From: Colwellia polaris
GTDB lineage: Archaea; Nanohalarchaeota; Nanosalinia; Nanosalinales; Nanosalinaceae
Assembly (NCBI GenBank): GCA_047617785.1
Contig: JBLGBK010000003.1
Span: 15,663 to 79,662, forward strand
Direction of reading: 5' to 3'
DNA length: 64,000 nt
Both the position numbers and the translations under genes were made by a program. The notes under the pieces are model-generated. The model was not told where the DNA came from. It was given only the letters and a program-made list of their open reading frames with translations, and made no database searches. This document shows positions 25,469-47,942 of this stretch, piece after piece; the first letter of the stretch is position 1, and every line of letters begins with the position of its first letter.

Positions 25469-25543
25469 GGGTTCGTGGTCTAGCTTGGTTATGACACCTC
25501 CTTGACGTGGAGGAGATCCCCAGTTCAAATCTGGGCGAACCCA
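25469..25543 (+). tRNA. tRNA-Val (anticodon GAC)
   Basis: Cloverleaf folded by hand. Acceptor GGGTTCG/CGAACCC, anticodon stem CCTCC/GGAGG with loop TTGACGT, T-arm CCCAG-TTCAAAT-CTGGG. No encoded CCA. Confidence 0.9.
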
Positions 25544-25553
25544 CTACGCATTT

Positions 25554-25717
25554 GGGAAAGTAGCTCAGGGGTTAGAGCGCTGCGCTCATAACAACTTTTA
25601 TGAGCGATGAGGGAGCAGGCGATTTCTGGATAGCCGGCTTTCCGATGATTAAAAACTCTTCCAGAATCATGTTTGTGAGAAACGCAGAGGTCCCGGGTTC
25701 GATTCCCGGCTTTCCCA
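25554..25717 (+). tRNA. tRNA-Met elongator type (anticodon CAT; Ile2 alternative not excluded) with a 91-nt intron at position 37/38
   Basis: Acceptor GGGAAAG/CTTTCCC, D-arm GCTC-AGGGGTTA-GAGC, anticodon stem CTGCG (25580-84)/CGCAG (25683-87), T-arm CCGGG-TTCGATT-CCCGG. The mature length would be 73 nt. Confidence 0.85.
25591..25681 (+). other. tRNA intron bounded by a canonical bulge-helix-bulge motif
   Basis: The central 4-bp helix pairs CTCA (25585-88) with TGAG (25676-79). The 3-nt bulges are T-A-A (25589-91) and A-A-A (25680-82). The outer helix pairs CAA (25592-94) with TTG (25673-75). Confidence 0.75.
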
Positions 25718-36624: not shown

Positions 36625-36739
36625 AAACCGTCTCAACACCCTATATCTTTCTTCTATCTATATTTTTCTTTCATCTATTCTCCATTGGTTATAAATACAG
36701 GCTCCGGGAATATTGGAATACAAGAGGTTTTCTAAAAAC

Positions 36740-37507
36740 ATGTCAGACCGATCAGATAACGAGGTTGAAATAAACCACGGTAACGGCGATGATTACGAAG
36801 TTGTCCCTGTAGGACCAATCAAGAAACTGGAAAGAAGAATTGACGAGATGGAGCAACAAAACCAACAGGGAGGCGGTGCTGCCGGAGATCGTATGGTCAG
36901 CGATATGATGGAAATAATGAAAACTAACCAGAAGATCGTCAACGACATGACTGAGTCAACACACGAACTGAAGAACTCGGTAGAAGATCTCACACACAAA
37001 ATGGATGAAGTAGTAGATAACATGAACAGCTTCATGGATCTTCTTACAGAGGCTTCTGAAGTAGATATGGAAGGAGAAGTCATGGGAGACATGGAAAGCC
37101 GAATCTCCAAAGCAATCGGCGACGAAATGCAAGACGTAGCTGAGGATATTAAACAGTCTAATCAAAAAGTCGTTGAGAATTTAGACAATATTAATGAGAG
37201 TTTGAGAAGAGCTTATGCTTCTCAGGATAGTCAAGATTTCTCGCCTCAAAATAGTAGTAACTCTAGCCCGTCGGGTTCTCCACAGAACCGGCAAAAATCT
37301 GCTAGCTCTTCATCGACTAATTCGGTTAATAGAGCTTCTCAAAGTTCGGGAAGTTCCCATCAGCGAAGTAGCAGCTCATCTATTCAGTCAACGTCAGGCA
37401 GTTCTACTCAGAGTCAAGGTTCGGGGAATGGTAACAGTGATTTAGGCAGTATAGGTAATGATTCTGACCGTATGGAAAAGTTGAAGAAGAAGTTTTCTGA
37501 AGAATGA
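36740..37507 (+). CDS. hypothetical protein: coiled-coil N-half and Ser-rich low-complexity C-half, translationally coupled to the first pilin
   Basis: I prefer the ATG at 36740 (MSDRSDNE) over the track's TTG at 36713. ATAAATA lies at ~36691 and GAGGT 12 nt upstream of the ATG. The stop TGA overlaps the next gene's ATG (ATGA at 37504-37507). Confidence 0.5.
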   Translation: MSDRSDNEVEINHGNGDDYEVVPVGPIKKLERRIDEMEQQNQQGGGAAGDRMVSDMMEIMKTNQKIVNDMTESTHELKNSVEDLTHKMDEVVDNMNSFMDLLTEASEVDMEGEVMGDMESRISKAIGDEMQDVAEDIKQSNQKVVENLDNINESLRRAYASQDSQDFSPQNSSNSSPSGSPQNRQKSASSSSTNSVNRASQSSGSSHQRSSSSSIQSTSGSSTQSQGSGNGNSDLGSIGNDSDRMEKLKKKFSEE

Positions 37508-37998
37508 TGGATAGAAAAGGAGTTACTCCTGTAGTTGCAACAGTACTTTTGATATCTATAGGTATAGCAGCAGTAGGTACTGCCGGAGTTTTTCTCCAGG
37601 ATATTGGAGATACTCTTAGAGAGAATGCTAACGATAGGATAGCAGGTGAGAACCGGATAGAGAATTCTGATATCTCTATAGAATATGCTTTTGAAAATGC
37701 TGACGGAGATATAGCTCTTGATGTTAGAAATACAGGTTCTACTAATTTAGAAGTTAAAGAAGATGGTGACGACTTATGGAATATCTATATTGAGGGGCGT
37801 CCTCAAGGCTCGTGGGAACTATCTGATACTGCTCTTGATAATTCGGATGATGTCGATTTATCGCCTCAAGAACAGCTCAGAATAGATACAAATGAAGACT
37901 ATCCTTCTACGGGGAACTCTAAAAGGGTCCAGGTATCAGGAATTTATGAAACACAGTCATCAATAATTTGCTCCTATAATGACGATGGGAGCTGCTAG
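37504..37998 (+). CDS. archaeal type IV pilin (DUF1628/Pilin_N-type class III signal peptide)
   Basis: MMDRKG|VTPVVATVLLISIGIAAVGTAGVF. The C-terminus reads CSYNDDGSC. Confidence 0.75.
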   Translation: MMDRKGVTPVVATVLLISIGIAAVGTAGVFLQDIGDTLRENANDRIAGENRIENSDISIEYAFENADGDIALDVRNTGSTNLEVKEDGDDLWNIYIEGRPQGSWELSDTALDNSDDVDLSPQEQLRIDTNEDYPSTGNSKRVQVSGIYETQSSIICSYNDDGSC

Positions 37999-38058: not shown

Positions 38059-38589
38059 ATGTTTGATATGAAAAATAGAAAGGGTATTACGCCCGTAATC
38101 GCGATTGTCCTACTCCTTATGGTTACAGTAGGAGCGGTCGGAGTGGTTTACACACAGTTCCAGTCACTTGTAGGTGATCCTGCAGATGAAGTGGGTAATC
38201 AGCAGCAAGTGCAGAACACAGAACTGTCAATCCGACCTTATCTCAACGACGATGATGATACCATCAACATCACGGTAGAAAATACCGGTGACGAGTCATT
38301 TGTCCTTAACGAGACAATGAGAATTACCTACGCTCCAGATGGAGAAAACTCTGGATTCGAGTATGGTAGTGCAGACGGTATTGGAAATCTTGTTGCCGCT
38401 GGAGGAACAACGCCTCTATGTCACAACGATGACACCACTATGGATCCTGGAGATACCGTAGACTGTAATACCGGTATTCAATATCCGGAAGCAACTTCGT
38501 CCGTAGGAATCATCATCGAGTTTAGAGGAGAGGAAAAATCTTGGTCAGAAACCTGTGATCCAGAGAATTCTGACTCGCTGACTTGTTAA
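38059..38589 (+). CDS. archaeal type IV pilin (DUF1628/Pilin_N-type class III signal peptide)
   Basis: MFDMKNRKG|ITPVIAIVLLLMVTVGAVGVVY. Four Cys in the C-terminal half. Confidence 0.75.
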   Translation: MFDMKNRKGITPVIAIVLLLMVTVGAVGVVYTQFQSLVGDPADEVGNQQQVQNTELSIRPYLNDDDDTINITVENTGDESFVLNETMRITYAPDGENSGFEYGSADGIGNLVAAGGTTPLCHNDDTTMDPGDTVDCNTGIQYPEATSSVGIIIEFRGEEKSWSETCDPENSDSLTC

Positions 38590-38666
38590 AAAGTCGGATC
38601 TTATCTTTCCCCTTCGATTCTTTTTCCCCTTTATTTTATATTCGGTTAAGTGCCTACACTTACTGT

Positions 38667-39329
38667 ATGAAGGTAGGCCAGACTCAGGCTGTAACTGCAG
38701 TAATTATTACAGGGATAACTCTAAGCGCAGTATCTGCGACATATATATGGGGTACTCCTATACTGGAGAAAAGACAAAGTCAGCAGCAGTTGGTCCAGAC
38801 TGAAGACCAGGTCAGGTCTCTTTATCAATCAATTGATTCAATCAGTAATAGCGGTGAAGGTACTACAGAGACTTTAGAGTTTGATTTTTCAGAGGATGCA
38901 AATATTCGTTTAAACGAATCAGGCAATTATATTGAAGTTAGTACTTCTGCTAGTAGTTCTCCGTATGCTAAAGGTACGTGGTTCCTTTTGGAAGGTGAGA
39001 GGCTGCAAGGATTATCTATAGGCGAAGGGACTTACGCAAGACGAGGTCAAGATCAGCCAGGGGTTATAGCGTTAAGAGCTACTGGCGATAGCAATGTTCA
39101 GTTAAGTTATCGTGTTGAGTTCAGAAATATGTATACTGAAACTGCATCTGGAAATAGACTTGAACAAGTCGATCTGCAATCTGTACGAGGGGATACGGCT
39201 ACTGGAGATACCGAGGTAGTTATTTCCAATGAAGGAACTGAGATAGATAGTGGTTCAGAAGCAGTAGACACAGAAACCGGAGAGACTATAGATCGTGAAA
39301 GAACTGTTGTAACTGTAGAGTTCCGGTAA
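38667..39329 (+). CDS. prepilin-like protein (G|Q class III signal)
   Basis: MKVG|QTQAVTAVIITGITLSAVSATYIWG. The ATG at 38667 is preferred. TTATTTTATATT lies at 38631-38642, ~30 nt upstream. Confidence 0.55.
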   Translation: MKVGQTQAVTAVIITGITLSAVSATYIWGTPILEKRQSQQQLVQTEDQVRSLYQSIDSISNSGEGTTETLEFDFSEDANIRLNESGNYIEVSTSASSSPYAKGTWFLLEGERLQGLSIGEGTYARRGQDQPGVIALRATGDSNVQLSYRVEFRNMYTETASGNRLEQVDLQSVRGDTATGDTEVVISNEGTEIDSGSEAVDTETGETIDRERTVVTVEFR

Positions 39330-39350: not shown

Positions 39351-39755
39351 TTGAAAGGACAGTATTTGGCCGTAGAATATATTTTTGTCATAGGTCTAAG
39401 TTTGATACTTGTTATAGCTTCGGTAGGTTTATTTAACGCCTATCGTGAGGAGGTTGTAGAGACCTCTATTGATGGTCAAACTGATATTGTTGCCTCCAAG
39501 ATGAGCGTTCAACTGTATAATTTGAAGCAGCATGAACAAGGTACTGTTGAGAAGACTATTCAGTTACCGGAATCTATGGGTGATAGAGACTATGAAATTA
39601 TTCTTGCTAATCCGTCGAACTTGATAATAGATATTCAAGGAGAAGAATACTCCTATGAATTTCCTTCACTTTCTGACTATGACTTCAGCGGTGATGCCGA
39701 AGGAGGAGACATAACTTTATACAAAAACAATAACCAGATAAGTATAGCAGGGTGA
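39351..39755 (+). CDS. prepilin-like protein (MKG|Q class III signal), TTG start
   Basis: (M)KG|QYLAVEYIFVIGLSLILVIASVGLF. The TTG start is supported by the MKGQ motif shared with the genes at 43349 and 45903, and by GAGGT 8 nt upstream. Confidence 0.55.
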   Translation: MKGQYLAVEYIFVIGLSLILVIASVGLFNAYREEVVETSIDGQTDIVASKMSVQLYNLKQHEQGTVEKTIQLPESMGDRDYEIILANPSNLIIDIQGEEYSYEFPSLSDYDFSGDAEGGDITLYKNNNQISIAG

Positions 39756-39761
39756 AAAAAT

Positions 39762-41459
39762 ATGAATATGCATGGACTAGTTGAACGTCTTAGAAGAGTA
39801 AGGCACCCAGAGTGGTATGAGGAAGAGGAAGAAGAGAATACACATCAAGAAGGGGTAAGTCTTCCTGCACCAGGTAAGTTTTCACCGGAAATGGTCGATG
39901 AGGGAGAAGCCTCAGCTGACTTAACAGATGTTGACACCACATATCCTCTAGTACCAGAAGATCCGGATAAAGGCGAAATAGTCTATGCTTGGGCTCATAT
40001 AAAATGGGATGAGGAAGCAGGAGAAGTTATATACCATATAATAGAACCTGAGCTTACAGAAGAGACTGAGAAAACTCTTGATAAGATAAGCCAAATTATG
40101 GAGAGAAGCTTCGATGTAACATTCAATGATATGGAGAGCCAAGAAGCAGAGGAATATCTCGAAGAGAAAATAGACATGATTGTTGATAAATATGATATCT
40201 CTATTGATGATGAGCAGCGAGAAGTAATCAGATACTACACTAAAAGAGACTTTGCGGGACTAGGCAAGCTACAACCGCTAATGAATGATACAGAAGTCGA
40301 AGATATATCTTGTGACGGGAGCGGCATACCGGTATATGCTTATCACCGAAATCCACGTTTTGGATCGGTTAAGACTAGTATAACCTGGGAGGATAAAGGT
40401 GAACTTGACGAGTTCGTCATGAAACTAGCACAGAGGTGTGGAAAGTCTGTCTCTGTTTCCAGTCCTTTACTTGATGGATCGCTGCCAGATGGTTCTCGTG
40501 TGCAGGCAACGTTAGCGACTGATATTGCCCGCAAAGGATCTAACTTCACCGTTCGACGGTTTACAGAGGATCCATTAACACCTATCCATATGATGGATTA
40601 TGAAACTGAAAATGCCCAGATGCTTAGCTATCTTTGGACGCTTGTAGAACATGGAAAGTCTATACTTGTATGTGGAACTACCGGAGCAGGTAAAACTTCG
40701 CAGTTGAACTCTCTAAGTCTGTTTATCAAACCTGAAAAAAAGATTGTATCTATTGAGGATACTCCTGAGTTACGGCTTCCTCACGATCACTGGGTGCCTG
40801 AAGTCGCCCGTTCAGGATTCGGATCCTCAGCTGAAGAAGGCGGAGAGGTATCAATGGATGACCTGCTTAAGGAATCTTTACGTCAGCGACCTGAATATAT
40901 TATCGTCGGAGAGGTTCGAGGAGAAGAAGCATACATACTTTTCCAGCAGATGGCAACAGGACACACAGGACTGTCTACGATCCACGCAGATTCACTTGAC
41001 ATGCTTATGGACAGGCTTACAACCGATCCGATCGACCTTTCTCCATCATTGATTGAGACATTGGATATGGTTATGCTGATTAAACGTATCCGGCGTGGAG
41101 GAAGCTACATCCGACGTATTACAGGACTTCATGAGATCCGAGGCTATGATGAGCGTACAGGTATTGATGAGAATCAGGTATTTGGATGGGATCCGGGAGA
41201 GGATGAGTATATTGTGAAGAATAACTCTCTGATTCTAAAGGATATTGCTGATCAGAGCGGTATGGATTACACCGATCTCCAGGATGAACTCCGTAATCGC
41301 CAGCATGTCTTGAGTTGGATGCAAGAGGAGCAACACAAACATTACCGAAAAGTTGGTGACATTATTTCACGTTATTATTCTAATCCTGAATCAATTCTGG
41401 AGAGAGTTGGGCAAACATTTAATTCAAATAAAGACGAATTAGAAGTCAAGGATGCTTAG
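39762..41459 (+). CDS. type II/IV secretion ATPase (VirB11/GspE family; archaeal PilB/FlaI-like)
   Basis: CGTTGAGKTS (Walker A), YIIVGEVRGEEA, GHTGLSTIHA. Confidence 0.9.
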   Translation: MNMHGLVERLRRVRHPEWYEEEEEENTHQEGVSLPAPGKFSPEMVDEGEASADLTDVDTTYPLVPEDPDKGEIVYAWAHIKWDEEAGEVIYHIIEPELTEETEKTLDKISQIMERSFDVTFNDMESQEAEEYLEEKIDMIVDKYDISIDDEQREVIRYYTKRDFAGLGKLQPLMNDTEVEDISCDGSGIPVYAYHRNPRFGSVKTSITWEDKGELDEFVMKLAQRCGKSVSVSSPLLDGSLPDGSRVQATLATDIARKGSNFTVRRFTEDPLTPIHMMDYETENAQMLSYLWTLVEHGKSILVCGTTGAGKTSQLNSLSLFIKPEKKIVSIEDTPELRLPHDHWVPEVARSGFGSSAEEGGEVSMDDLLKESLRQRPEYIIVGEVRGEEAYILFQQMATGHTGLSTIHADSLDMLMDRLTTDPIDLSPSLIETLDMVMLIKRIRRGGSYIRRITGLHEIRGYDERTGIDENQVFGWDPGEDEYIVKNNSLILKDIADQSGMDYTDLQDELRNRQHVLSWMQEEQHKHYRKVGDIISRYYSNPESILERVGQTFNSNKDELEVKDA

Positions 41460-42324
41460 AAAGTACGCCAACTTATGCTATAATTTAGTAGGCAGCTTTG
41501 TGCTTCCATATGTGGATCTTTTTGAGGGTTTAAGACCTCAAATATCGAAAGCAGATATAGAGGTATCGCTGCCAGAGTATGTAAGCTTGATGTTTGCTAC
41601 TTCCGGATTTGTATCTTTGTTTATATTTTTAGTTGTTGGCACCCTGCTTCTGTTGTCTCAAGGTATTTCTGGCATAATATTAGCCTTAACACTTTCTATA
41701 GTATCTGGCGCGGCGACAATTATAGGTTTCTACATCTATCCTTCTTTGATAAAGTCAAGTAGAGCTTCTGAGATCCGAGACACTCTGCCTTTTGCTACTA
41801 TGTATCTCTCTACCTTGGCCGGTACTGGTACTTCTTTACCGGAGATTTTCTCAAATCTTGCAGAGGTAGAGGAGTACGGAGAAGTTGCACGGGAGGCTGA
41901 GAAGATTGATAGAGATATTAAGACATTTGGTATGGATGCAAGTAAAGCAATTCAAAGAGCAGCTGAGAGAACCCCTAGTGAAGATTTTCGAGAGCTTATG
42001 TGGGGTCTTAACCATGTTTTGACGACAGGAGGAACTCTTAGAGACTTTCTACAGGAACGTGCAAGCCGTTTAATGGATGATTATGAAAGAAGAGTGGAAG
42101 AATTTGCAGATTCACTATCTTTATTGGTGGAAATGTATATTACTGTTGTAATTGTAGGTTCAATTGTATTTACATCAATGTCCGCAGTTATGACAACTTT
42201 TACAGATCTTTCTCCTAGTGTAATTGTAACAATACAGATGCTTCTTATCTTCTTTGGGCTGCCATTAATTTCAGGCATGTTCATACTTCTTGTACAAGGT
42301 CTATCGCCGGGTGGAGTACAATGA
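41452..42324 (+). CDS. T2SSF-domain platform protein, first half (TadC/PilC/FlaJ-like)
   Basis: 290 aa. TM pair, cytoplasmic helical domain (DTLPFATMYLSTLAGTG...), then TMs. Overlaps the ATPase stop. Confidence 0.75.
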   Translation: MLRKYANLCYNLVGSFVLPYVDLFEGLRPQISKADIEVSLPEYVSLMFATSGFVSLFIFLVVGTLLLLSQGISGIILALTLSIVSGAATIIGFYIYPSLIKSSRASEIRDTLPFATMYLSTLAGTGTSLPEIFSNLAEVEEYGEVAREAEKIDRDIKTFGMDASKAIQRAAERTPSEDFRELMWGLNHVLTTGGTLRDFLQERASRLMDDYERRVEEFADSLSLLVEMYITVVIVGSIVFTSMSAVMTTFTDLSPSVIVTIQMLLIFFGLPLISGMFILLVQGLSPGGVQ

Positions 42325-43349
42325 TTGACTTTTTCCAAGACGAGAAACTGGAGGCAGGATGGTCTATTGAGGATAAAATCCTCTTTATATCAATTTCATT
42401 AGGTATTGTTCTTGTAGGATCAGGTCTCTTAACCTATGCTGCTTTAGGGCCGCAGCTAGGTGGTGCGATACTCATCTTTGGTTTAATAATGTCGGTCTTA
42501 CCTTACTCTGGCTACTCGTTCTTGAAAAATAGGGCAATTAGGGAAATAGAAAACCAGTTCCCTTCATTTTTGAACGACCTTGCTGAATCTAAGAGAGGAG
42601 GTATGACTCTATTAAGAGCTCTCGAGTCAGCAAGAGAGTCTGACTATGGAAGACTGAATAACGAGATAGAGAAAGTTCATAACCAAATGACCTGGGGCGT
42701 GCCGTTTCCTGAAGTAATGGAAAGATTTTCCAGGAGAATGAGCGCTTCCTCAGTTGTTCAGCAATCTTTGTCTATCATTATTCAGAGCTTTCAGAGCGGA
42801 GGAAACATAACTGCTACTATTGAATCGGTCGCAGAGGATGCAGATCAACTTAGAGAAGTTATTCAAGAGAAAGATGCTCAGCTTAAACAACAGCTCGTTA
42901 TCATGTATGTTATTTTCTTCCTGTTCATAGGAATAACAGTAGGAATATATTTCCTGCTTGGACAGCTGTTAGGTCTAGGTTCTCCAGATGCAGGAGCACT
43001 CTCTGGAATAGGAGAGGTAATAGGTAGCGGCGGAAACACTGATGTAAACTTCTGTAATGGCAACATACAAACAGCTACTCCGTTCTGCCAAACTGCTAGA
43101 ATATTCGGTTTTGTACCTTCTGATATAGCACTTACGTCTCAACAAGCAGAAGACAGAAGTTATGGTAATATGGCCTACTATAAATCACTTCTTTTCCTTA
43201 TGCTAATAGTTCAAGGTATGTGTACTGCTGCAGTAGCAGGTCAGATAAAGGAAGGAAGCCCTAGCGGAGGGGTAAAGCATGCTCTAATAATGCTTCCTTT
43301 AGCACTTGTTGTATATATGGTAGTGGTAGCTCCTGCAGGTGTAAGCTGA
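42321..43349 (+). CDS. T2SSF-domain platform protein, second half (TadC/PilC/FlaJ-like)
   Basis: 342 aa with the same architecture (QFPSFLNDLAESKRGGMTLLRALE...). ATGA overlap with the previous gene. Confidence 0.75.
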   Translation: MIDFFQDEKLEAGWSIEDKILFISISLGIVLVGSGLLTYAALGPQLGGAILIFGLIMSVLPYSGYSFLKNRAIREIENQFPSFLNDLAESKRGGMTLLRALESARESDYGRLNNEIEKVHNQMTWGVPFPEVMERFSRRMSASSVVQQSLSIIIQSFQSGGNITATIESVAEDADQLREVIQEKDAQLKQQLVIMYVIFFLFIGITVGIYFLLGQLLGLGSPDAGALSGIGEVIGSGGNTDVNFCNGNIQTATPFCQTARIFGFVPSDIALTSQQAEDRSYGNMAYYKSLLFLMLIVQGMCTAAVAGQIKEGSPSGGVKHALIMLPLALVVYMVVVAPAGVS

Positions 43350-44176
43350 TGATGAAAGGTCAATCGACCATAGAGTTTCTTGGAACTTCAATGATGTTCA
43401 TAGCGCTTTTAGGTACTATCATAATGGTTGCCTCCGATAGCTTACCCCGATTTGATTCCGAGGTAGAAGAAGCATCATTAAATATGGAATTACAAACTCT
43501 TACGACAAAAATGCTGACACAGCCAGGTGAAACTACAGGAGGATCATCTGATTGGGAGCGTAATCCTGACTTAATCGAAACCTTTGGATTGGCAGATAAG
43601 AGCGGGGAGGTTGAACGATCAAAGATACAGGCACTGGACGATAGCAGTAATTCGCCTTCGACTTTGAATTACACTGAATTTAGGTCTACGGAGAATATAG
43701 AGAATGAGTACAGAATGGTATTTACATGGTATCCTATTGTAGAATCGTCTAAAACATTTACTAGAACAAATTCTCCCTCTAAAATTCAGGAGCCTACAAC
43801 CTCTGAATACACTGACGACGGTAATACTGTCCACTATGGGTCAGCCATGATTAATGGGCAAGATATGAAATTTCTTGTAACTTCACACGATAATGTCTAC
43901 GATACAGTGTATATATCTCCAGAGTGGAATTTCCTAAACGCAGAACCTAGAGTTGAAGGCGAGGTAGTTGATATTCAGGGTCAAAACTTTACCGTTTCCG
44001 AATTCCAGAACAGAGATGAAAATCCGGGTAATTTAGTAATATTCTCCAAAAATTTGAACGACTTTGGTGCAATCCAAGGGCAGGCCAGCACCGTCATAAA
44101 ACTCAATAGATATGCCATCTTGAAGGATGTAGGCTCAGATGATTTCCCTCTTAAGATAGAGGTGTTAGCATGGTAA
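43349..44176 (+). CDS. prepilin-like protein (MKG|Q class III signal)
   Basis: MMKG|QSTIEFLGTSMMFIALLGTIIMVA, with Glu at +5 if cleaved after Gly. Confidence 0.55.
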   Translation: MMKGQSTIEFLGTSMMFIALLGTIIMVASDSLPRFDSEVEEASLNMELQTLTTKMLTQPGETTGGSSDWERNPDLIETFGLADKSGEVERSKIQALDDSSNSPSTLNYTEFRSTENIENEYRMVFTWYPIVESSKTFTRTNSPSKIQEPTTSEYTDDGNTVHYGSAMINGQDMKFLVTSHDNVYDTVYISPEWNFLNAEPRVEGEVVDIQGQNFTVSEFQNRDENPGNLVIFSKNLNDFGAIQGQASTVIKLNRYAILKDVGSDDFPLKIEVLAW

Positions 44177-45906
44177 GAAGAAAAGGGTTAAGCTATTCTC
44201 TTGAAGTTATAATATCGGCTATTATAATTCTAAGTTTCACCTATGGTATTTTTGAAATTCCTCAAGGGAATGATTGGAATCAGCATAGATCTGAGATAGA
44301 AGCTCAAGATTTGACACAGACGCTCCATAAAACAGGGCTTGCCACTAGTTTAGTTAGTAGAGGAGAGACAGGTTCTTTGCAGACAGCTATTACTACAATT
44401 TCGGATAGAGATCGTACTATCTCAGGTAGTATTACTAATATTCCTATAGGTGAGGTAGAAGTAGGATATCATACTGTTGATGAGGATCAGTACACAGTCA
44501 ATCTAGAAGACGTACAAGGATCTGGTGATATGTGCCAAGGCGACTTACAAGATGATATTGATACTCAAAAAGATATTAAAAGAACCCAGCAACTAGGTAC
44601 TTCGGATGAAAACTACGATGTTAGGCTTTATATCGCGGATACCGGCTCTCAATTTGATGAGAGCGTTGATTATAATACGGTATGGGTAGATAATGGTACA
44701 GAATGTCAGTTTACGGCATCCGATGGACCTTTCTTTTTGGAAGACAATTTCAAATGGGGAGACAGTAATAACTCCGCACCAAGCGATCATTTTCAGATAA
44801 AAAGTATAGAAGGCAATCAACTGACTATCTACAAAACCACGATACCTACTCAAATACATAAACAGATGAATGAGCCTGTAAATTCGCTTAGACCGGAAGT
44901 AGAGATGGATGCAATAGATATTAGGGATGAGGAACTGACACAGGATATAATGGTCTTCAGAAAAACTGAAGCTCTTGATGACATAGACACTGAAAGGACT
45001 AAAGTAGAGGATTACATGCAGGACTACCCTGTTTTAATGATGATGGATATAAATCAAGCAGATTTCTCAAACTCAGATTTTATGCAGAATACCAACTTCC
45101 ATTGGGTAGATGCAGGGTTTTCAGGGGGTTATGGTGGTAATCCAACAAGTATTGAATTTACTAATTCGGATATATCTAGAAATATTGAGACTTTCTTTGA
45201 AGGAATGAATGGGGATAGTGCTTCTGCAGCTCTGCCTCCTGCAGGACCAATAGTGTCCAACAATTCGGATACTCTAACGCAGGAAAATCCTGCTCTTCAA
45301 GGAGGTGCAACTCTTAATACTGCTGCATGGAGTGATCGAGTTGATAATATGGCTACAACTCCCTACGATGGCGAACCTTCTCCAGACTGTGGAACTCGAT
45401 ATGAAGGAACGGTAAATCTTCCGGGAGGTAATTACCCTATATTGAATACAGAACTAGTAGGATCAGAGGGAAGCTGTCCTACTGATGGATGGGCTGTGAA
45501 CTTTGATTTTCAAGGTTCTGCAGACACTGGTAGAGGGCCATTTCTTCAAGGGGAAGAAACAATTATCGATAGAAGAGGTTACACTATTTTAACTAACTCT
45601 GATGACTCAGGATGTGATTTAGGAGAATGTGTCGAATTTAATTTCTCAGGAAATTCCAATGTAGAGGTAATTAACTACGGTGAGAGCTTCCAAGGATTTG
45701 ATGGGGAGAGACTTGCACTGACGGGAAGGAAGACATCATATAATGAGGAGGAATTTAAGCTACTATCGTCTACGATTTTCAGCCTTTACGATTCAGAAGT
45801 AACCTTTGGAACTCAGCAGTCTTCATCTATATCTACAGATATAGTCTCTGGTGTTGATAATACTACATATATGCCTTATCAGTTACGTCTGAGGTGGAGT
45901 CGATGA
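44170..45906 (+). CDS. large prepilin-like surface protein (578 aa), no recognisable domain
   Basis: MVRRKG|LSYSLEVIISAIIILSFTYGIF. The rest is hydrophilic with scattered Cys pairs. Confidence 0.5.
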   Translation: MVRRKGLSYSLEVIISAIIILSFTYGIFEIPQGNDWNQHRSEIEAQDLTQTLHKTGLATSLVSRGETGSLQTAITTISDRDRTISGSITNIPIGEVEVGYHTVDEDQYTVNLEDVQGSGDMCQGDLQDDIDTQKDIKRTQQLGTSDENYDVRLYIADTGSQFDESVDYNTVWVDNGTECQFTASDGPFFLEDNFKWGDSNNSAPSDHFQIKSIEGNQLTIYKTTIPTQIHKQMNEPVNSLRPEVEMDAIDIRDEELTQDIMVFRKTEALDDIDTERTKVEDYMQDYPVLMMMDINQADFSNSDFMQNTNFHWVDAGFSGGYGGNPTSIEFTNSDISRNIETFFEGMNGDSASAALPPAGPIVSNNSDTLTQENPALQGGATLNTAAWSDRVDNMATTPYDGEPSPDCGTRYEGTVNLPGGNYPILNTELVGSEGSCPTDGWAVNFDFQGSADTGRGPFLQGEETIIDRRGYTILTNSDDSGCDLGECVEFNFSGNSNVEVINYGESFQGFDGERLALTGRKTSYNEEEFKLLSSTIFSLYDSEVTFGTQQSSSISTDIVSGVDNTTYMPYQLRLRWSR

Positions 45907-46760
45907 AAGGGCAGTTTATGGCGCTTACTGCAGTGTTGGTCTCTATAATCGTCCTTTCGATGACAGGCATAATTACAGAGTTTCAGAGCCAGAATTATCC
46001 TGATACTCAGGAAGATAGAGTTATCGATATGATTAAAGAAGAGGCTGGCAAAGTTGATGTAGCTCAGCCTGAGGAAAGGCGTAGTTTCACACGATTTGTT
46101 CAGTCAGTTCCTAACTATAGGGCTGAGACTACCTTTGATAACACACGTCAATGCTTTGAAGTAATACTAGAACGATCAAATTCACGAATTACAATGGACT
46201 GTGTAGGAGGAGAGGAGTCTAAAGTTGAGGAGGTTAGACTTATTTCAATAGGCTATGATGCAAGGCAAGATTATGGGGGTAACGCACCGGTACCTCCTAG
46301 AGGCACAGAATCTAGTTATGGTGGAGTCTACGATGCCGAAAACAACCGTCAACTTCACAGTGCAGGACGTTCATATTCCCTATCAGTCTATGATCTAGGT
46401 TCTAATACGTTTCTTAGTCATCAAACTTATGATATATATGACGAGGATGATGGTGAGTCAAAAGCCGACCAAATGGCAAATGATATACAATCTATGACTG
46501 ACGATGAAATAGCGTTAATAACGACCCAGAATGAGCCCCAAAATCACAGACTTCATGGTGACCTTGAAGATGCAATGTATAACTTAGGAGCTTCTCAAGA
46601 TCTCTATGGGGCAGGGGATTCTATATTTAAGAACAGAAGCGCTTACTTACTGGTTGGAAGACCGGATCTCGGTGAAGGTAACGCCTATATTGAGAAGTAC
46701 GCTGGTGAAGTAAATAACAGTTCTGATGCATGGGTTAAGGCAGATTTCAAGCTAAGCTGA
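45903..46760 (+). CDS. prepilin-like protein (MKG|Q) with a C-terminal ILEI/FAM3 'GG'-like domain
   Basis: MKG|QFMALTAVLVSIIVLSM. I prefer the ATG at 45903 (ATGA overlap with the previous stop) over the track's GTG at 45894. The C-terminal ~175 aa align by eye with the FAM3/ILEI pattern. Confidence 0.55.
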   Translation: MKGQFMALTAVLVSIIVLSMTGIITEFQSQNYPDTQEDRVIDMIKEEAGKVDVAQPEERRSFTRFVQSVPNYRAETTFDNTRQCFEVILERSNSRITMDCVGGEESKVEEVRLISIGYDARQDYGGNAPVPPRGTESSYGGVYDAENNRQLHSAGRSYSLSVYDLGSNTFLSHQTYDIYDEDDGESKADQMANDIQSMTDDEIALITTQNEPQNHRLHGDLEDAMYNLGASQDLYGAGDSIFKNRSAYLLVGRPDLGEGNAYIEKYAGEVNNSSDAWVKADFKLS

Positions 46761-47942
46761 AAATTTTTCTATAAACTCTACTTCTTTATCATCAAATTCA
46801 AGGTCTCCGGCTAGTGCTGGATTATCTTCCAGTATCTCAGCAAGGAATGGCAGCGATCTTTTTGCCTCTCTCTTTGAGATATGCATTTTGTCGGATAGCT
46901 TGGATGCGATGCCGTCCATACGGTTCCGTGCTGCATGTGTCTGTCCCATGCGCTTAATCTTTCCAGGATACTGGTACTTGGTCCATCCATCGTATTTTTC
47001 ATCCTTGGAAAGAGCAACTCCTACACTGGAGAAGAAGTAGACATATTTCAACAGTTTCCAGTTTTGCCGGATCCGAATCCTTCCATTGAATAAATCCGCA
47101 TTCGATAACTGCCTGTATGCTTTTGCAACATCCTCTTTTTTCTTGTATTCGCGCGGGATATTCTCTCTTATCCATTGAAGGAAGGTATCTGCATCTTCAT
47201 CAAGATTCTCCGTAGCTTGCTTCGCATTTTGGGGAGTCGTTGTTTTGAAGATAACTTTCAGTGAGTCAAAGATTTCCTGTCGATTATCACGCTGGCTGAT
47301 AGCATCAAGGTCTTCGACCTCAAGTTTATCCTTTCCGAGTGCTACAGCTTCAAGGTCGTTTATTGCTGACCGCATCTGGCCGCCGCTTCCACGGGCGATA
47401 CGTTTGACCGCGCTTTCATCGTATTCAATTCCCTCGTTTTCAAGTATCCTTTTCAGATGTGCGTTGATGGAATTTGTGTGTACTGATCCAAGTTCGATAA
47501 GTTTGGATCTGTTTCTTATCGTCTGTACGTTGCTTGCGTAGGCGTCATTTGCGGTAAGTATTACTGGGAAACGTGATTCATCTATGATTTTAAGCAATTC
47601 GCTGCTTCCCCCTCTGTCGGCGCGCCCCATACCGTCTACTTCGTCAATTAAAATCAGTTTTTCTTTTCCTAGAAAGCTGGCCTGTCGAGTTGCTTCTTTC
47701 AATTCTGACTTTAGTTTCTTCTTGGTCCGGACGTCTGAAGCGTTGGTCTCTACAAGTTCTCTGTCATAGTCTTCTGCTAGAGCTTCGGCCATTGAGGTTT
47801 TTCCTGTTCCTGCCTGTCCATGTAGAAGTACCGGTTTATCTCCTTGTTTCCAGTTTTCAAGCCATTCTTTCAGCTCCTTTTTTTCGCTGGAAGCACCTCT
47901 ATAGTCTTCTAGGCTGTCTGGACGGTATTTTTCTACCCACAT
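46752..47942 (-). CDS. rfcL: replication factor C large subunit
   Basis: MWVEKYRP, LLHGQAGTGKTS, LILIDEVDG. Confidence 0.9.
   Translation of the reverse strand: MWVEKYRPDSLEDYRGASSEKKELKEWLENWKQGDKPVLLHGQAGTGKTSMAEALAEDYDRELVETNASDVRTKKKLKSELKEATRQASFLGKEKLILIDEVDGMGRADRGGSSELLKIIDESRFPVILTANDAYASNVQTIRNRSKLIELGSVHTNSINAHLKRILENEGIEYDESAVKRIARGSGGQMRSAINDLEAVALGKDKLEVEDLDAISQRDNRQEIFDSLKVIFKTTTPQNAKQATENLDEDADTFLQWIRENIPREYKKKEDVAKAYRQLSNADLFNGRIRIRQNWKLLKYVYFFSSVGVALSKDEKYDGWTKYQYPGKIKRMGQTHAARNRMDGIASKLSDKMHISKREAKRSLPFLAEILEDNPALAGDLEFDDKEVEFIEKFSA

Follow-up and report, generated by a model that had tools for sequence, protein, structure and literature searches.

Nanohaloarchaea, like other DPANN archaea, depend on physical contact with a host cell, and we know of no receptor-binding part yet identified for the type IV pili of DPANN organisms. 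Could a pilus subunit of such an archaeon carry one? The question is raised by a gene at positions 45903-46760 (+ strand) of a 64,000-nucleotide stretch of DNA, called here at its full length the window, from the nanohaloarchaeal genome deposited as Colwellia polaris (GenBank assembly GCA_047617785.1, contig JBLGBK010000003.1, positions 15,663 to 79,662 of the forward strand; GTDB family Nanosalinaceae). The gene is the last of a pilus operon, and a first-pass annotation, made by eye from the sequence, had read its product as a prepilin-like protein that ends in an ILEI/FAM3 “GG”-like domain. Here, we find that amino acids (aa) 110-285 (46230-46757, + strand) of the 285-aa protein (P0001) form an ILEI/PANDER (“GG”) domain carried by a small pilin module, and we consider it probable, with some reserve, that the whole is a modular minor pilin displaying this head for lectin-type attachment to glycans.

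The identity of the head can be established at the level of sequence families. The region matches the Pfam family ILEI (PF15711) with an E-value of 1.1e-8 and a score of 35.8 bits, above the gathering cut-off of 27, and its orthologues and distant relatives likewise match this family. An exhaustive HMMER search covering 1.84 billion representative proteins returned 522 relatives, 221 of them at E<=1e-10, nearly all of which align only to aa ~137-285. Two PHROGs families match the head at ~1e-14, and one representative relative carries a Phage_Tail_Tip domain. A word-indexed homologue search limited to the head produced no new relatives, and NCBIfam offered no model for the 285-aa protein or for its two large neighbours. 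A single-sequence phmmer search of the PDB sequences found nothing relevant, only a spurious match to allophycocyanin (E 0.092), so a family profile was needed. Such a profile (A2), built from an alignment of 30 diverse domain segments among the HMMER relatives, recovered FAM3B (1.3e-7), the POMGnT1 stem (1.9e-3), TMEM2 (3.3e-3), FAM3C (0.064), and FAM3A (0.094) from the same PDB sequences.

Predicted structure leads to the same superfamily. A first AlphaFold2 model, made with 14 close orthologues, reached a predicted local distance difference test score (pLDDT) of only 66, and its top 20 Foldseek matches were already all FAM3, POMGnT1, or TMEM2. When the domain alone (aa 103-285) was modelled with the A2 alignment, the pLDDT rose to 94.9, with a predicted template-modelling score (pTM) of 0.91, and the model consisted of nine strands and two helices, in keeping with the fold of FAM3B, FAM3C, and the POMGnT1 stem, in which a helical layer accompanies two beta-sheets. 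Foldseek ranks 1-21 against the PDB were occupied exclusively by FAM3A/B/C, the POMGnT1 stem, and TMEM2 (E 1.9e-5 to 1.8e-3, probability 1.00), and the next match had an E-value of 0.3. Matches over the full domain had template-modelling (TM) scores of 0.59-0.67 when normalised on the query and of up to 0.75 when normalised on the stem-domain targets. Resemblance by chance or by composition, under which the C-terminal region would not be an ILEI domain, could be argued from the blank single-sequence search and from the identity of just 10-19% between the head and solved ILEI/GG members. Set against a Pfam score beyond the gathering threshold, the profile match to FAM3B, a confident model whose exclusive block of ILEI/GG matches is followed by an E-value gap of more than two orders of magnitude, and phage ILEI proteins that match to 8e-14, this explanation is vanishingly improbable, and we rejected it on the Pfam, profile, and Foldseek results. 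The fold assignment for aa ~110-285 is secure because Pfam, the family profile run against the PDB, and both searches by structure lead to the ILEI/PANDER/GG superfamily and to no other; no better match to an unrelated fold appeared in the profile and structure searches. The reading by eye therefore holds, and in detail: the peptide it had quoted (GRSYSL...AYIEK) is exactly aa 155-265, and the span it gave the domain (46227-46757, aa 109-285) fits the modelled bounds, in which the first strand covers aa 110-116.

The nearest relatives of the head are phage fibre versions of the domain, not the animal ones. Viral ILEI-domain, tail-fibre, receptor-binding, and gp35 hinge models match it with E-values down to 8e-14 and TM scores of 0.72-0.79, at a root-mean-square deviation of 2.0-3.0 Å and 23-30% identity. 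FAM3 proteins have conserved disulfide-bonded cysteines. A reading of the head sequence (aa 103-285) finds no cysteine at all, and none, accordingly, of the FAM3 disulfide type; because these cysteines are missing, the head is a member of the ILEI superfamily but not a FAM3 protein. The GG domain is said to be named after a conserved Gly-Gly signature; Y139-G140-G141, which may or may not correspond to it, is invariant in the clade of pilin-borne domains described below.

Whether a head of this fold could bind a sugar depends on residues known from its animal relatives. Three residues of the POMGnT1 stem, Arg129, Asp179, and Arg207, make contact with beta-linked N-acetylglucosamine (GlcNAc) and are conserved in FAM3 proteins, two of which, FAM3A and FAM3C, bind GlcNAc as well as other sugars in vitro (PMC9802357). 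Of the three, Arg129 and Asp179 are retained in a Tal domain of the ILEI fold from a streptococcal phage (PMC9437275). By hidden Markov model alignment, Arg156 in the motif GRSY (46368-46370, + strand) is aligned with Arg129, and Asn210 in QNEPQ (46530-46532, + strand) with Asp179. The equivalent of Arg207 would be Arg245 in FKNRSAY (46635-46637, + strand), judged by motif, by the FAM3B alignment, and by spacing. This placement on FKxRSAY is a lead, drawn partly from our own count of the POMGnT1 spacings, presumably 50 and 28 residues. In the 30 diverse domains, the first Arg is kept in 23, the Asp in 24, and the second Arg in 21, and no parts of the family as a whole are better conserved than the three motifs that bear them. 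Among 14 orthologues, the window protein included, the triad is R/D/R in 10, and Asp stands at the position of Asn210 in 11.

Several of these residues also speak against a sugar-binding head. The triad R/N/R, with Asn in place of the Asp179 equivalent, belongs to the window protein alone (1/14); one orthologue has T/D/R; and two (P0013 and P0014) have G/N/A and have thus lost all three residues. Further, the ILEI domain of T4 gp35 is a structural connector and not a proven lectin. Because of Asn210 here, the G/N/A pair, and the single T/D/R, a POMGnT1-like pocket is not universally kept; a glycan pocket of this type in the head is plausible from the alignments, somewhat altered in the window protein and apparently abandoned in one sub-branch. 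The incomplete triad, together with the gp35 hinge connectors among the structural matches and the fact that ILEI/PANDER is one of three structural domains in the T4 “kneecap” of the long tail fibre, favours a head that serves as a protein-protein connector or other non-lectin module and docks the pilin to its two large neighbouring minor pilins or to a protein receptor, as the ILEI/PANDER domain of the gp35 kneecap does. We hold this to be unlikely, given that the sugar-contact motifs are the best-kept parts of the family, that FAM3A, FAM3C, and the POMGnT1 stem bind sugars experimentally, and that elsewhere this pilin module carries, as its head, lectin domains of ConA type.

What, then, does the head sit on? 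Within 45894-46760 there is a single open reading frame (ORF) on the + strand, and we set the gene at 45903-46760 because its ATG overlaps the stop of the upstream gene, which encodes a 578-aa protein (cgATGAaa); its own stop is 46758-46760. The product begins with a predicted three-residue leader, M-K-G (45903-45911), with cleavage expected between G3 and Q4, followed by the hydrophobic N-terminal helix QFMALTAVLVSIIVLSMTGIITE (45912-45980), a segment that resembles pilin alpha-1N. The signal is of class III type, MKG/QFMALTAVLVSIIVLSMTGIIT (a slash marks the expected cleavage site here and below), in which a short charged leader ending in Gly precedes ~22 hydrophobic residues. The pilin module, delimited by alignments and by stand-alone homologues, is aa 1-102 (45903-46208); its small globular part (aa ~27-102) ends in ...MDCVGG and holds the conserved Cys84 (46152-46154) and Cys100 (46200-46202). 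A 7-aa linker, GGEESKV (46209-46229), placed by the alignment and the domain model, leads to the head. All of these features lie on the + strand.

The module has a life of its own in related genomes. A search across 70 genomes of this class, made with the full-length alignment, recovered the module (positions 1 to ~104) from 49 of the 50 that belong to the window's family; most of these copies are short pilins of about 105-116 aa. At three loci in other genera (L019, L022, L023) it is a stand-alone gene of this length in the same operon position, after prepilin-like genes of ~280 aa and 576-845 aa and tail-to-tail with a gene for the large subunit of replication factor C (RFC). Stand-alone versions of 102 aa likewise dominate the N-terminal matches in the representative-protein search, and the short stand-alone modules mostly end 1-5 residues past the second Cys. 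In an alignment of 15 module sequences, the G, the Q, and the first Cys are invariant, and the K, F, M, and second Cys are at least 90% conserved.

The case for a pilin has weaknesses, which need to be weighed together. No curated pilin model (Pilin_N PF07790, TIGR02537, Class_IIIsignal) matches the module at E-values up to 10, and a Pfam search at the same limit with the module and the neighbouring prepilin N-termini gave nothing meaningful, just DUF7266 at E 0.11. A profile of the module (A3) searched against the PDB finds no solved pilin and indeed nothing at all; hhalign to the 134-aa pilin of the locus aligns the signal motif alone (MKGQ plus six residues); and in the first AlphaFold2 model the first 34 residues, including a helix at 5-19, are of low confidence. 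We assign the module to the pilins because of its signal-like N-terminus, its position in the operon, and its module homologues. With a prepilin peptidase of family A24 encoded in the genome as well, the description of the protein as prepilin-like stands, in the absence of any match to a curated pilin model.

That no pilin model or structure matches the module also suits a protein that never enters a filament, with an uncleaved signal anchor or a cleaved class III signal as in the sugar-binding proteins of Sulfolobus, and with the ILEI domain on the cell surface or in a short structure like a pseudopilus or bindosome that captures polysaccharide or other nutrients. Archaeal surface proteins that are not pilins, substrate-binding proteins among them, can also have class III signals (PMC4858521), and in a related nanohaloarchaeon an ILEI domain is part of a giant surface protein of an ordinary secreted kind. 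Yet in nearly every genome of the family the module ends a pilus operon, as a conserved gene coupled in translation to the one before it, its K-G-Q-F-M motif is invariant or nearly so, and ILEI domains of the same clade are fused also to bona fide Pilin_N-type pilins; a surface protein outside any pilus therefore seems to us quite unlikely, and we retain the modular minor pilin.

The operon itself supplies the setting. Eleven genes make it up, co-directional on the + strand and for the most part overlapping, and the 285-aa gene closes the series. At the head stands a coiled-coil, Ser-rich protein (36713-37507), followed by two pilins of Pilin_N/TIGR02537 type (37504-37998 and 38059-38589, each with a TIGR02537 match), two pilin-like genes (38583-39329 and 39351-39755), an ATPase of T2SSE type (39762-41459), and two separate T2SSF platform genes (41452-42324 and 42321-43349). 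A 275-aa prepilin-like protein with an MKG/QSTIEF signal (43349-44176) and the 578-aa prepilin-like protein with an RKG/L signal and no known domain (44170-45906) come next. Besides the 285-aa protein, the operon thus encodes the ATPase, two T2SSF proteins, and six other proteins with class III signals. The 578-aa gene is translationally coupled to the 285-aa gene, and its product is a probable partner in a tip or minor-pilin complex. Downstream, the 285-aa gene converges on the RFC large-subunit gene (46752-47942, - strand), with an overlap of nine bases. The synteny of the operon is preserved in relatives of the same genus. The genome (787 kb, 96.5% complete) has exactly one ILEI gene and one A24 prepilin peptidase, on contig 5 (Peptidase_A24, 33.4 bits vs 26.5).

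A few observations on these neighbours stand apart from the argument. The coiled-coil protein at the operon head corresponds to the “CCP” genes, for which Hamm et al. 2024 (PMC11291902) draw a comparison with sigma-1, a viral attachment protein. The large middle prepilin-like protein differs between genera, from 576-608 aa to 828-845 aa (44170-45906 in the window; L022:9621-12158; L023:2906-5392), and because of this variation in length it too may carry exchangeable parts. A 193-aa polytopic membrane protein (L006:2245-2826, - strand) overlaps the 3' end of the A24 peptidase gene on the opposite strand. Elsewhere in the window, a tRNA match at 25554-25717 (+ strand) directly follows a 75-base tRNA at 25469-25543; it spans 164 bases, which implies an intron-containing tRNA gene.

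Assembled from these parts, a modular minor pilin would work as follows. The short class III leader (MKG/Q) would be removed by the single A24 peptidase of the genome, and the hydrophobic helix and small, presumably disulfide-containing, pilin module would place the subunit in a pilus built by the co-encoded ATPase and the split TadB/TadC-like platform. Because of its bulky head and its co-translation with two other large minor pilins, the 285-aa subunit would most likely be positioned at the pilus tip. There the ILEI/PANDER domain would face outward and might bind a glycan in a pocket that the GRSY, (D/N)EPQ, and FKxRSAY motifs make up; this ligand would plausibly belong to a substrate or to a haloarchaeal host, in the latter case as part of its surface glycoproteins or polysaccharides.

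When was the head acquired, and from where? Among the 70 genomes, the full pilin-plus-ILEI architecture is confined to two genera, the window's own (G000, G044, G045) and that of G036 (JBDGSE01); it is found also in 13 metagenomic orthologues with 52-65% identity. The head has been added, in these lineages only, to a short pilin that is otherwise conserved. In G036 (L024:6833-7747, - strand, JBDGSE010000031.1), an in-frame TAG in the linker (...CVEVGAPA, stop, EMEVMVYSIGF...) leaves the gene in two ORFs, one of 114 aa for the pilin and one of 188 aa, without a signal, for the ILEI domain; this could be a pseudogene, a sequencing error, a case of read-through, or an intermediate of fusion or fission.

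Other lineages combine the same parts differently. The module of the window protein carries elsewhere a Laminin_G_3 (ConA-like lectin) head or PKD plus Laminin_G_3 heads (P0162, P0114), so heads are swapped on a constant pilin module. In P0024, P0029, and their relatives, a classical archaeal Pilin_N N-terminus (KGVTPVVATVLL...) precedes the ILEI head; pilin-borne ILEI heads thus sit on two unrelated archaeal pilin modules. On a metagenomic contig (L025:540-4287, + strand; Logan SRR27869037_630047), three consecutive overlapping pilins of Pilin_N type bear different heads, one fibrinogen-C-like, one a glycine-rich region of ~400 aa, and last the ILEI domain, and the trio looks like a cassette of modular pilins. 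That this ILEI pilin adjoins one whose head gives a Fibrinogen_C match, borderline at 22.2 bits vs 22, speaks for the lectin reading. We also note 313-aa and 311-aa versions of the last pilin in two other genera (L020:12398-13339, + strand; L021:1928-2863, - strand), whose C-terminal parts of ~200 aa match no Pfam family and may be alternative heads.

When 72 ILEI domains are placed in a maximum-likelihood tree, the 11 pilin-borne heads among them all belong to a single clade (support 100/98), apart from the phage-like domains and those of giant proteins. Its members have in common an insert of ~12 residues, DARQxxGGNAPxPPxG, which separates the first strand from the second and is specific to this clade. 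Inside the clade, the G036 head groups with the Pilin_N-borne heads (99/93) and not with those of the window's genus, which suggests that the head was transferred more than once. Outside the pilin-borne clade lies the single ILEI domain of a secreted surface protein (L011:142-3414, + strand; G003, another family of the same order) that has a signal peptide, many repeats, and a length above 1,091 aa; this domain is 49% identical to the head of the window protein. A recent phage insertion as the source of the head was considered and rejected: the operon is conserved, GC content across the window is even at 0.40-0.45, and the head clade stands apart from the phage clades.

These patterns invite a broader idea, to which we give limited credence, that the heads of DPANN minor pilins are exchangeable host-recognition cartridges and that one ILEI clade, sister to the receptor-binding ILEI domains of phages, has hopped between modules (KGQ-type and Pilin_N-type) and between lineages. 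If it were true, the gain of a head in a nanohaloarchaeal genus would set the host glycan, and hence the host, for attachment. Our full-text literature search found no description of exchangeable lectin-type heads on conserved DPANN pilin modules. It also found no paper reporting an ILEI domain on an archaeal pilin, in agreement with the first-pass annotation, which had known of none. The ILEI domain, modular pilins, and the DPANN pilus locus were each already known separately; it is their combination, an ILEI head on an archaeal pilin, that this search did not find described.

Type IV pili have been suspected in the host contact of Nanohaloarchaeota and of other DPANN and candidate phyla radiation symbionts, in the sections of PMC11291902, PMC9563170, and PMC9894109 on which we draw. 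With its putative lectin-type head, the 285-aa protein is a specific candidate for the host-gripping part of the pilus, both small and expressible, and its evolutionary history is clear: a conserved short pilin gained the ILEI head in two genera only, and other genera have different heads or none. The structural claim is solid, and the biological claim is testable with a small soluble domain. If binding is confirmed, host range could be predicted from metagenomes through the identity of the head.

How far do known systems anticipate this protein? The type IV pilus operon, which is conserved across Nanohaloarchaea, forms with its surroundings the conserved “Locus 1” of cluster-2 DPANN archaea, as the portions of Hamm et al. 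2024 (PMC11291902) used here describe it: both contain GatE, a P-loop NTPase, a thermosome gene, the coiled-coil protein, pilins (FlaF/PilA-like in Locus 1), a CpaF-type ATPase, and TadC-type genes. The difference lies in the last pilin, for which those portions describe no head, the ILEI fusion being limited to two genera.

For the head, there are two sets of precedents. With the POMGnT1 stem and FAM3A/B/C (PDB 5GGJ, 2YOP, 5LC2, 7ECQ) it shares the fold (TM 0.60-0.75) and the three sugar-contact motifs, but it differs in its low identity to them, in its lack of cysteines, in the insert of the pilin clade, in having Asn for Asp179, and in a prokaryotic, filament-borne context. The phage ILEI proteins (T4 gp35 hinge, Bacillus phage G gp431, Dickeya phage JA13, and the CBM_1 of streptococcal phage Tal) are its closest relatives in structure and sequence, and they too display the domain on a fibre for cell-surface recognition; in them, however, it is embedded in giant multidomain tail proteins and not mounted on a pilin, and the pilin-borne domains form a separate clade. 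Pilus heads are thereby linked to a domain family that phages use on their tail fibres for recognition of cell surfaces.

For the architecture as a whole, the closest parallels are PilB and PilC of Streptococcus sanguinis, which have a vWA head and a ConA-like lectin head, respectively, and in which, it has been argued, a bulky head on a small pilin module is placed at the end of the filament and acts directly in adhesion (Raynaud et al. 2021, PMC8179133). Like them, the 285-aa protein starts with a class III signal and joins a small pilin module, by way of a short linker, to a domain of a ligand-binding family, and it is a minor pilin encoded in a pilus locus with predicted exposure at the tip. 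It differs in its archaeal pilin module, which no pilin model matches, in its KG/Q leader, and in its ILEI/PANDER head. The main text of PMC8179133 does not mention archaea, and the parts of its supplement considered here contain no ILEI or IPR039477 term. Because its signal is archaeal and the bacterial prepilin methylation motif of IPR012902 (G/FxxxE) is absent from it, the protein falls outside the published bacterial set of modular pilins. In its module, its 7-aa linker, and a domain that also occurs outside pilus biology, in phage and surface proteins, it is nonetheless built to work like one, and it extends the modular-pilin principle from bacteria to archaea.

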